22,788 bases of DNA from a virus (lineage: Duplodnaviria > Heunggongvirae > Uroviricota > Caudoviricetes): IMG/VR virus record IMGVR_UViG_2703718798_000002, positions 1 through 22,788 of that record; one strand, given 5' to 3'. The translations under genes and the position numbers were made by a program. This document shows, one piece after another, positions 11,513 to 12,364 of the stretch (its first letter is position 1; each line of letters starts with the position of its first letter). A model generated the notes under the pieces. That model ran no database searches. It was not told the DNA's origin and saw only the letters and a list, made by a program, of their open reading frames with translations.

Positions 11513-12364
11513 ATGGCAAAGCTGGACTGGAAAAAGCTGGAGCAGGCATTCCGACGCGAACATGCCAGAACTGGCATAAAACTTCAGGACTGGTGTCGTA
11601 AGAACAATATCAGTTATGGCACGGCTCGCCGGTACATAAAATTGCGCAAAAACCCCCCCATAAATACAGAGGAAAGTGCGCAGAAAAATGCGCAAAAAAG
11701 TGCGCAAATTGATGATCAAAAAAGCGCACAAAAAAATGTGCAGGGATCCGATGACGAATCCAGTAATGACAAGGCTTACAGCGATGATGGCAGTGGTGAA
11801 AAATGCGCAAAAAACTGCGCAAATTCGGCAGAAACGAAACGCAACAGCAGATCGGGCAATCCTCACCCCGTTGCCCGGTTTAGCGACCGTAACACCCACG
11901 CCGTAAGACACCGTGGATATGCGAAGTATCTTGAGGCAGATAACCTCATGGATGATGCGTCCGACATGGTGCTGTTCGATGAACTGGTGTTCACCCGGGC
12001 CCGCGCACTTTCAGTAACTAAGGCACTTAAAGGGATGTTCGCCGACCTGGAAGAGGCAACTGACGTGGAAACCCGCGTTGCTCTTTACGACAAAATACTC
12101 AAAGCTGAACAGGCCCTTGACCGGAATATTGCCCGTATCGAGTCAATTGAACGCTCATTGCTGACGCTGGACGTCCTGGCTGAGACAGCACCAAAACTTC
12201 GTGCTGACCGGGAAAGAATCAACGCCGCCAGAGATAAACTCAGAGCGGAAACCGATATTCTGACCAGCCAGCGCCGGGGTGTTATTACGCCAGTCAGTGA
12301 CATCGTGTCATCGCTGCATGAAATGAGTAATTCGGGGAGACTGGATGACATTCCGGAAGAATAA
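11513..12364 (+). CDS. Terminase small subunit (HTH N-terminus, repetitive AQK-rich linker)
   Basis: Position immediately upstream of and overlapping the large terminase. N-terminal HTH-like segment (NNISYGTARRYIKL). Coiled-coil C-terminus. Confidence 0.65.
   Translation: MAKLDWKKLEQAFRREHARTGIKLQDWCRKNNISYGTARRYIKLRKNPPINTEESAQKNAQKSAQIDDQKSAQKNVQGSDDESSNDKAYSDDGSGEKCAKNCANSAETKRNSRSGNPHPVARFSDRNTHAVRHRGYAKYLEADNLMDDASDMVLFDELVFTRARALSVTKALKGMFADLEEATDVETRVALYDKILKAEQALDRNIARIESIERSLLTLDVLAETAPKLRADRERINAARDKLRAETDILTSQRRGVITPVSDIVSSLHEMSNSGRLDDIPEE
11643..11825 (+). repeat. Array of 7 direct TGCGCA + A-tract motifs inside the small-terminase gene
   Basis: Motif starts at 11643, 11677, 11689, 11701, 11724 (AGCGCA variant), 11804, 11816; partly 12-bp periodic. 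Confidence 0.7.

Follow-up and report, generated by a model that had tools for sequence, protein, structure and literature searches.

Organization of the Terminase Region and of the TGCGCA Array

The DNA considered here is a 22,788-nt stretch of a virus of the Caudoviricetes (IMG/VR record IMGVR_UViG_2703718798_000002, positions 1 to 22,788; hereafter the window), which corresponds to the late region of a 933W/VT2-Sakai-type Shiga-toxin (Stx) prophage, and the element under study is an array of TGCGCA hexamers inside terS, the gene of the small terminase subunit, which is probably the site (pac) recognized for DNA packaging. The array occupies about nt 131-310 of terS (the first hexamer at nt 131, the left cluster at 165-230, and the right pair at 292-309) and encodes the peptide ...ESAQKNAQKSAQIDDQKSAQKNVQ... 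within the open reading frame (ORF) 11513-12364, whose profile match to phrog_370 confirms the first-pass annotation of a small-terminase gene (Table 1). The stretch upstream is non-coding, as also stated there, and contains no plus-strand ORF of at least 40 aa.

Table 1. Coordinates of the array, of its parts, and of the surrounding genes in the window.
Feature	Position	Strand	Remarks
Dam-family N6-adenine methyltransferase gene	9966-10733	+	Pfam MethyltransfD12; TIGR00571 just over cut-off; between lysis genes and Rz
Rz	10742-11218		5' of the terS gap
Non-coding gap	11219-11512		294 bp, between Rz and terS
terS, small terminase subunit, 283 aa	11513-12364	+	PHROG phrog_370, E 1.6e-117; between Rz and terL
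N-terminal three-helix helix-turn-helix (HTH) domain, aa 1-46, PacA-like	11513-11650	+	AlphaFold; presumed hexamer reader
Whole candidate pac recognition array	11643-11821		Entirely in the part of terS coding for the disordered linker
Hexamer 1, TGCGCA	11643-11648		End of the HTH-coding part; codon phase 2 (Leu-Arg-Lys)
Left cluster, 12-bp lattice	11677-11742		TGCGCA at 11677/11689/11701; TGATCA at 11713; AGCGCA at 11723; TGTGCA at 11737
Spacer between clusters	11743-11803		61 bp
Right hexamer pair, TGCGCA	11804-11821		Copies at 11804 and 11816; codon phase 1 (Cys-Ala)
terL, large terminase, 568 aa	12345-14051	+	PHROG phrog_2; nuclease/ATPase partner
Portal protein gene	14051-16195	+	Pfam P22_portal, E 3.9e-128

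Exact TGCGCA is present in 13 copies in the 22.8-kb window, six of which (11643, 11677, 11689, 11701, 11804, and 11816) are contained within 183 bp, a clustering with a Poisson probability of about 1.6e-9. The repeat cluster noticed in the first-pass annotation is thus real, but of the seven copies counted there only six are exact and the seventh requires one of the one-mismatch copies, AGCGCA at 11723 or TGTGCA at 11737. The partial 12-bp periodicity is borne out: the lattice spans 11677-11737 (11677/11689/11701/11713/11737), with AGCGCA at 11723 off lattice by 2, a second 12-bp pair is formed by 11804/11816, Tandem Repeats Finder assigns a period of 12 to the array, and a repeat search returns a 26-nt family with 12-bp spacing. 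In addition, a 28-nt repeat (11683-11710 versus 11798-11825) is conserved at 96% identity in a different reading frame. Runs of 4-7 A residues flank the hexamers and the array region contains 41.6% A versus 26.9% in the window, which agrees with the A-rich tails described previously, except that long A-tracts are for the most part peculiar to the enteric lineage. GATC occurs in the array region only at 11714 and 11745, the former on the lattice, and no second repeat cluster was found elsewhere in the window.

Constraint at the DNA Level

The repeat is a DNA feature and not a peptide feature. In fact, TGCGCA is read in all three codon phases: the copy at 11643 in phase 2, those at 11677-11701 in phase 3 (Ser/Asn-Ala-Gln), and the pair 11804/11816 in phase 1. 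Synonymous-codon shuffles within terS (n = 2000) give a mean of 0.9 TGCGCA and a maximum of 4, so that six copies are reached in 0/2000, and the same test is likewise positive for 17 other relatives. Codon spelling in 95 non-redundant TGCGCA-type genes shows the same bias: Ala-Gln/His dipeptides of the linker are spelled T GCG CA (spaces at the codon boundaries) in 482 of 516 cases (93%) versus 2 of 52 (4%) elsewhere in the same genes, and linker Cys-Ala is spelled TGC GCA in 76 of 77 cases in the TGCGCA-type relatives and in 29 of 31 outside this type, including GATCA-type alleles.

The hexamers are also retained across genera. Four to nine TGCGCA copies occupy the same slot in terS of Citrobacter, Salmonella, Yersinia, Klebsiella, Aeromonas, and Escherichia, hexamer 1 being kept at terS nt 131 in the Escherichia and Citrobacter relatives; in the array-bearing relatives of other genera TerS is only 40-65% identical and the linker peptides differ. 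The array is found even in two phages in which the C-terminal body of TerS belongs to the unrelated phrog_51. The extended word common to the relatives is roughly AAA-N-TGCGCA-A, and neighbouring sites are spaced by 10/12/14 bp in the enteric relatives and by 9/10/14 bp in the Aeromonas-type and other distant ones, which corresponds to about one helical turn. The flanking bases shared by the Aeromonas-type and other distant relatives are restricted to A at about -4..-2 and +1.

The TerS Protein and Its N-Terminal Domain

In the AlphaFold model of TerS, which is built on 24 homologues, the N-terminal domain is predicted to consist of helices 6-20, 24-30, and 35-41 (pLDDT about 88) and is followed by a disordered linker at aa 46-131 (pLDDT <50) and by a long helical hairpin at aa 145-253. 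The array codes for the linker only; since this linker tolerates almost any peptide sequence, the DNA is free to carry a signal.

Judged by sequence, the N-terminal domain is homologous to that of P1 PacA, with modest scores. BLASTP aligns TerS aa 6-45 with PacA aa 3-43 (E 0.002) over the shared pattern …W…F…G……NxxTARRY…, and the PHROG profile matches are reciprocal, TerS detecting the PacA family phrog_1711 at 6.8e-4 and PacA detecting phrog_370 at 1.9e-4. The PHROG matches of TerS are confined to families of the phrog_370/51/1711 type, and neither TerS nor TerL was assigned to a family by Pfam (at E 0.01 or better) or NCBIfam. A PDB sequence search with the TerS profile gave nothing meaningful and Foldseek of the AlphaFold model against the PDB gave nothing beyond generic coiled coils, none with an E below 0.09. 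When the 48-aa N-domain was searched against 1.84 billion representatives, 199 clusters were obtained. In addition to TerS-like proteins, the same search matched proteins of 600-800 aa (P0123, P0128, and P0130) carrying 4-10 repeated matches to aa 14-47.

Co-Variation of the HTH Domain and the Hexamer

The HTH type of TerS is associated with the word repeated in the adjacent linker-coding DNA. The HTH [TS]ARR[YH][ILV]K pairs with TGCGCA; NTART[RQ]IK, present in 933W, in VT2-Sakai, and in a Salmonella prophage, is accompanied by GATCA(T), repeated 4-5 times every 12 bp; SSAKRYI occurs with TTCGCA/TGCGAA (in Brenneria, Pectobacterium, and Raoultella and in 26 viral contigs); EGAIRKRAKK occurs with 5-10 copies of GTACGCA (Klebsiella phage Chronis and 44 contigs); and the P1-like NPNT[AC]RR[YH]LR pairs with TGATC. 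This pairing has no exception among about 190 distinct 5' regions, the sole apparent one (locus L028) being a database-masked stretch. In ST865 (L007) terS is recombinant, with an HTH and array of the Sakai type followed by a downstream part of the window type, and bodies of the Chronis type carry either GTACGCA or TGCGAA cassettes; as read from these sequences, the link between HTH and hexamer is one that survives recombination. In E. coli 2012C-4227 the GATCAT array is interrupted by an IS3-family element (L009 1501-2933) that leaves terS truncated.

Comparison with Known Packaging Systems

The P1 pac and the PacA-PacB terminase were described by Sternberg & Coulby 1987 and Skorupski et al. 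1994 (cited in PMC10028697). The site is 161 bp long and lies within pacA (annotated P1 record; PMC10028697), where four TGATCA hexamers at nt 194-233 are followed by a site for the integration host factor (IHF) at 256-268, by the cuts at 276-285, and by three to four hexamers at 324-380 (PMC10028697); this pac was mapped experimentally, with cleavage between HEX4 and HEX3. Synonymous recoding of the hexamers lowers the titre about 9-fold (PMC10028697). The P1 hexamers are read in two codon phases, and hexamers of this type are kept, with a changed peptide, in a 70%-identical Cronobacter phage and in a 35%-identical Enterobacter plasmid.

The array in the window resembles P1 pac in several respects. 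Both sites are inside the small-subunit gene, directly 3' of the HTH-coding part and within the sequence coding for a disordered linker, and the N-terminal HTH domains of TerS and PacA are homologous; the hexamers are in more than one codon phase and form two clusters, 4 + 3 in P1, at nt 194-233 and 324-352 of pacA, and 1 + 3 exact (+3 degenerate) + 2 here. In contrast, the P1 word TGATCA/G contains GATC and is under Dam control, whereas the word here is TGCGCA, which lacks GATC and therefore provides no Dam-methylation switch. An IHF site adjoins the P1 cut, while at the array in the window no WATCAANNNNTTR match was found (up to 1 mismatch, either strand, 11600-11900), the consensus being loose and its absence not proof. 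Moreover, the C-terminal body of TerS is unrelated to PacA, TerL is unrelated to PacB (BLASTP E 2.9), and the phage is a 933W-like podovirus whereas P1 is a myovirus. By analogy, the array would work like P1 pac and is not a strict member of the P1 system.

The nearest allelic counterpart is terS of the Stx2 phages 933W and VT2-Sakai (Traversvirus), which shares the gene, the slot, and the 12-bp periodicity, has an identical downstream block, AAAAACTGCGCAAATTCGGCAGAAACGAAACG, and is about 76-80% identical in the C-terminal domain and in TerL. The recognition helix is NYNTARTRIKMGK there versus SYGTARRYIKLRK in TerS of the window, and the left cluster is made of GATCAT x4-5 at exact 12-bp spacing, with four or five Dam sites (VT2-Sakai L002 3440-3530; L034-L076). 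This allele probably has a packaging specificity different from that of the window, and its Dam sites suggest a P1-like packaging control by Dam (or SeqA) in the classical Stx2 phages.

SPP1, P22, and Sf6 are headful phages in which pac is in or beside terS and an oligomeric TerS with an N-terminal HTH recognizes multiple or bent binding elements; in SPP1/SF6, pac is organized as pacL-pacC-pacR and in P22/Sf6 it lies inside terS. The general logic of a headful phage with an intragenic or adjacent pac is common to these systems and to the window, but in P22 the pac is one asymmetric site of 22 bp and not a hexamer array. These phages had been proposed as the precedent in the first-pass annotation; Pfam does not link TerS to Terminase_2, P22 gp3, Sf6 gp1, or SPP1 G1P, no PDB relative emerges by sequence or fold, and the appropriate precedent is instead P1 pac. 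In lambda, which is packaged by gpNu1/gpA with a 12-nt cohesive end, cosB contains R sites for gpNu1 and the IHF site I1 and is extragenic. The likeness is limited to repeated short sites for the small-subunit HTH beside the cut, since cosB lies outside genes and the gpNu1/gpA families were not detected in the window.

Proposed Packaging Mechanism

The region 11643-11821 is, with reasonable confidence, the pac recognition array of a 933W/VT2-Sakai-type Stx1c prophage read by the PacA-like HTH of TerS, and it is most likely a P1-style intragenic hexamer pac that uses another repeat word. The candidate pac site suggested in the first-pass annotation is thereby supported on four sides, namely the DNA-level constraint, the co-variation between HTH and word, the homology and layout shared with PacA, and the headful type of TerL, whose nearest solved relative is T4 gp17 (E 6.9e-8). 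The pac assignment is a strong inference and not a demonstration.

Late in infection, six to eight TGCGCA(A) words would be bound by TerS oligomers by means of the N-terminal HTHs; since adjacent words are separated by about a helical turn (10-14 bp) and fall into two clusters, several HTHs of one oligomer could engage one DNA face and so bend or wrap the array. The T4-gp17-like TerL would be recruited and the first cut would fall within the array or close to it, the likeliest place being the spacer between the clusters by analogy with P1 HEX4/HEX3, after which concatemeric DNA would be packaged by headful, probably rightward into terL. The array being written in the codons of the disordered TerS linker, the reader and its address would be inherited as one cassette.

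Several observations weigh against this interpretation or limit its scope. TerS binding and cleavage at the array are themselves inferred, as are headful packaging, its direction, and the cut position. The homology to PacA scores low (E about 1e-3 to 1e-4 along some 45-100 residues), and because the relatives are phylogenetically related the truly independent switches of HTH and hexamer number about 4-6 and not 190. The P1-like HTHs also carry ARRY and yet go with TGATC, hence no simple code relates residues to bases. In addition, the distal TGCGCA (Cys-Ala), located about 15-25 nt upstream of conserved E-T-K-R codons, is kept also in alleles with a GATCA-type HTH and left cluster (L002, L044, and L109), a retention that is left unexplained by a model in which the HTH reads every hexamer; the conserved distal copy may serve as a signal of its own, such as one for the cut or for TerL. 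The P1 mechanism cannot be copied wholesale, due to the lack of an IHF consensus and of a PacB-related TerL. Finally, Stx phages such as 933W have been stated to be cos phages, without generalized transduction (PMC7566468).

Alternative Explanations

The last point bears on the possibility that a lambda-like cos is located in 11219-11512 and that the hexamers are bound by another factor or are incidental, which is very unlikely. The position would be the expected one, as the lambda cos likewise lies between the lysis genes and the small terminase gene, and about 160 bp of non-coding DNA directly 5' of terS (11355-11512) is conserved among the E. coli Stx-phage relatives and kept in the O104:H4 phage, in which a moron replaces all of the DNA 5' of it. 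However, this segment is not conserved in Citrobacter and other distant relatives that keep the array, morons (bor and a heptose phosphatase gene) are inserted further upstream of terS in relatives, and the cos statement in PMC7566468 is backed by a citation and not by data on ends, while the TerL of 933W has served as a headful reference class in terminase typing (PMC6029569). A cos site upstream of terS is made unlikely also by TerL, which is headful and T4-gp17-like and not lambda-like, next to a P22-type portal; no Nu1-type or gpA-type terminase was detected, because neither subunit matches any Pfam family. The cos site that the first-pass annotation had placed in the gap as an alternative to pac therefore finds no support, and 11355-11512 might be a translational or late-transcript element. 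The public records of phi296/phi349 and of Chronis are re-linearised at terL and thus uninformative on virion ends. The same conserved 160 bp could hold another element if the array were a TerS site used mainly for autoregulation, damping transcription or translation of terS-terL, with packaging starting elsewhere. Co-variation and DNA-level constraint indicate a link between TerS and the array and not packaging as such, and the site is within the terS-terL transcription unit; the autoregulatory explanation is nonetheless unlikely, given that the same kind of array is the mapped pac of the homologous P1 system, with cleavage between the clusters, and that the window contains no other repeat cluster. 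The two roles are not mutually exclusive.

Two further explanations place the function in RNA or in the peptide. According to the former, which is highly improbable, the palindromic hexamers and A/T runs act as RNA or single-strand hairpins in antisense termination or in modulation of the terS mRNA. Five terminator-like sites with a hairpin and a T-run are present on the minus strand of 11677-11821 versus 1.0 expected, and the fold of this strand has z = -3.2, equalled by 0/200 shuffles; on the other hand, the plus-strand mRNA gives z = -1.65 (13/200 shuffles fold as well), the stems are only 6 bp, and the allelic GTACGCA, TTCGCA, and GATCAT are direct non-palindromic repeats without mutual pairing. 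Two allelic arrays are weaker on the minus strand (z -1.8 and -2.3), and the minus-strand hairpins are for this reason considered a by-product of palindromic words with T-runs, RNA hairpins also failing to explain the co-variation with the HTH. The folding of both strands of this and of the two allelic arrays yields modest, poorly discriminating z-scores, which are weak evidence only. According to the latter explanation, the array is a low-complexity SAQK peptide linker grown by 12-bp replication slippage and the DNA repeats are a functionless by-product, as the first-pass annotation had foreseen among the outcomes contrary to its proposal (a lineage-specific linker without DNA-level conservation). 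The region does code for a disordered linker, one SAQ is spelled AGC GCA CAA off lattice at 11723, and alleles differ in copy number (3 copies on the lattice here, 2+1 in that of the O104:H4 phage, 4 versus 5 GATCAT in Stx phages), so slippage does occur. This explanation is scarcely credible and is already contradicted by the three codon phases, which include Leu-Arg-Lys and Cys-Ala, by the shuffles and the linker-specific spelling reported above, and by the retention of the hexamer across genera despite differing peptides.

A Portable Reader and Address

If the array is the pac site, the HTH and the linker-coded array together may form a portable, self-addressed cassette of reader and address that is moved whole by recombination between TerS bodies and large terminases unrelated to one another (those of the 933W type, of the phrog_51 type, and of P1 PacA/PacB), a generalization that is plausible but tentative. 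Such a cassette might exist in at least five specificities (TGCGCA, GATCA, TTCGCA, GTACGCA, and TGATC), a count that should be taken with the same caution. In that case a table of specificities would make pac sites and packaging-compatibility groups predictable from sequence in many enterobacterial and Aeromonas prophages, Stx phages included, and the co-variation of HTH and hexamer would be a rare case of a phage packaging signal readable from sequence alone. It would also explain the allelic terS variants among co-resident Stx prophages as different packaging addresses.

Stx-converting phages spread Shiga toxin genes, and their mode of DNA packaging is not described in the accessible literature, which is inconsistent in treating them as a headful reference class (PMC6029569) or as cos phages (PMC7566468); no prior description of this array was found in that literature. 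If the proposal is correct, Stx phages package by headful from a pac site and are capable of generalized or lateral transduction, which runs against the cos statements. A defined pac array is a precise target to settle the cos/pac question and predicts where any lateral transduction of the host genes beside the prophage would start and in which direction it would proceed. It also offers an engineering handle, as hexamer recoding of the kind by which self-packaging of P1 was disabled (PMC10028697) could give packaging-dead prophages or pac plasmids.

Genomic Context of the Window

The gene order Rz-terS-terL-portal is collinear with that of VT2-Sakai/933W-type phages and identifies a 933W-type (Traversvirus-like) module, TerS being 76% identical to its VT2-Sakai counterpart at the protein level. 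At 80-99% DNA identity the terminase region has 328 matching phage records, almost all from Stx-converting phages, the closest being the ECOR13 phage PhiR12_3; the segment 11513-11900 is 100% identical to E. coli strain 2012EL-2448, whose genome matches the terS 5' region in three places. The upstream half (1-11500) matches prophages annotated with stxA1c (Stx1c), with HsdM/HsdS type I restriction-modification genes, and with a SASA-family (nanS-p) esterase, and the window is accordingly assigned to an Stx1c-converting prophage.

The slot of the methyltransferase gene (9966-10733) is occupied by two tiny ORFs in PhiR12_3 and by ant in VT2-Sakai, and from this comparison it looks like an exchangeable moron slot. 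A functional tie between this methylase and the array was considered and dropped, since TGCGCA contains no GATC and close array-bearing relatives have no methylase there. An Rfam scan of the whole window places no RNA family in or near the array; its sole match, downstream of the stx1c-like genes, is a full-length one to the STnc100 sRNA family at 5065-5278 on the plus strand (195 bits, E 2e-45).

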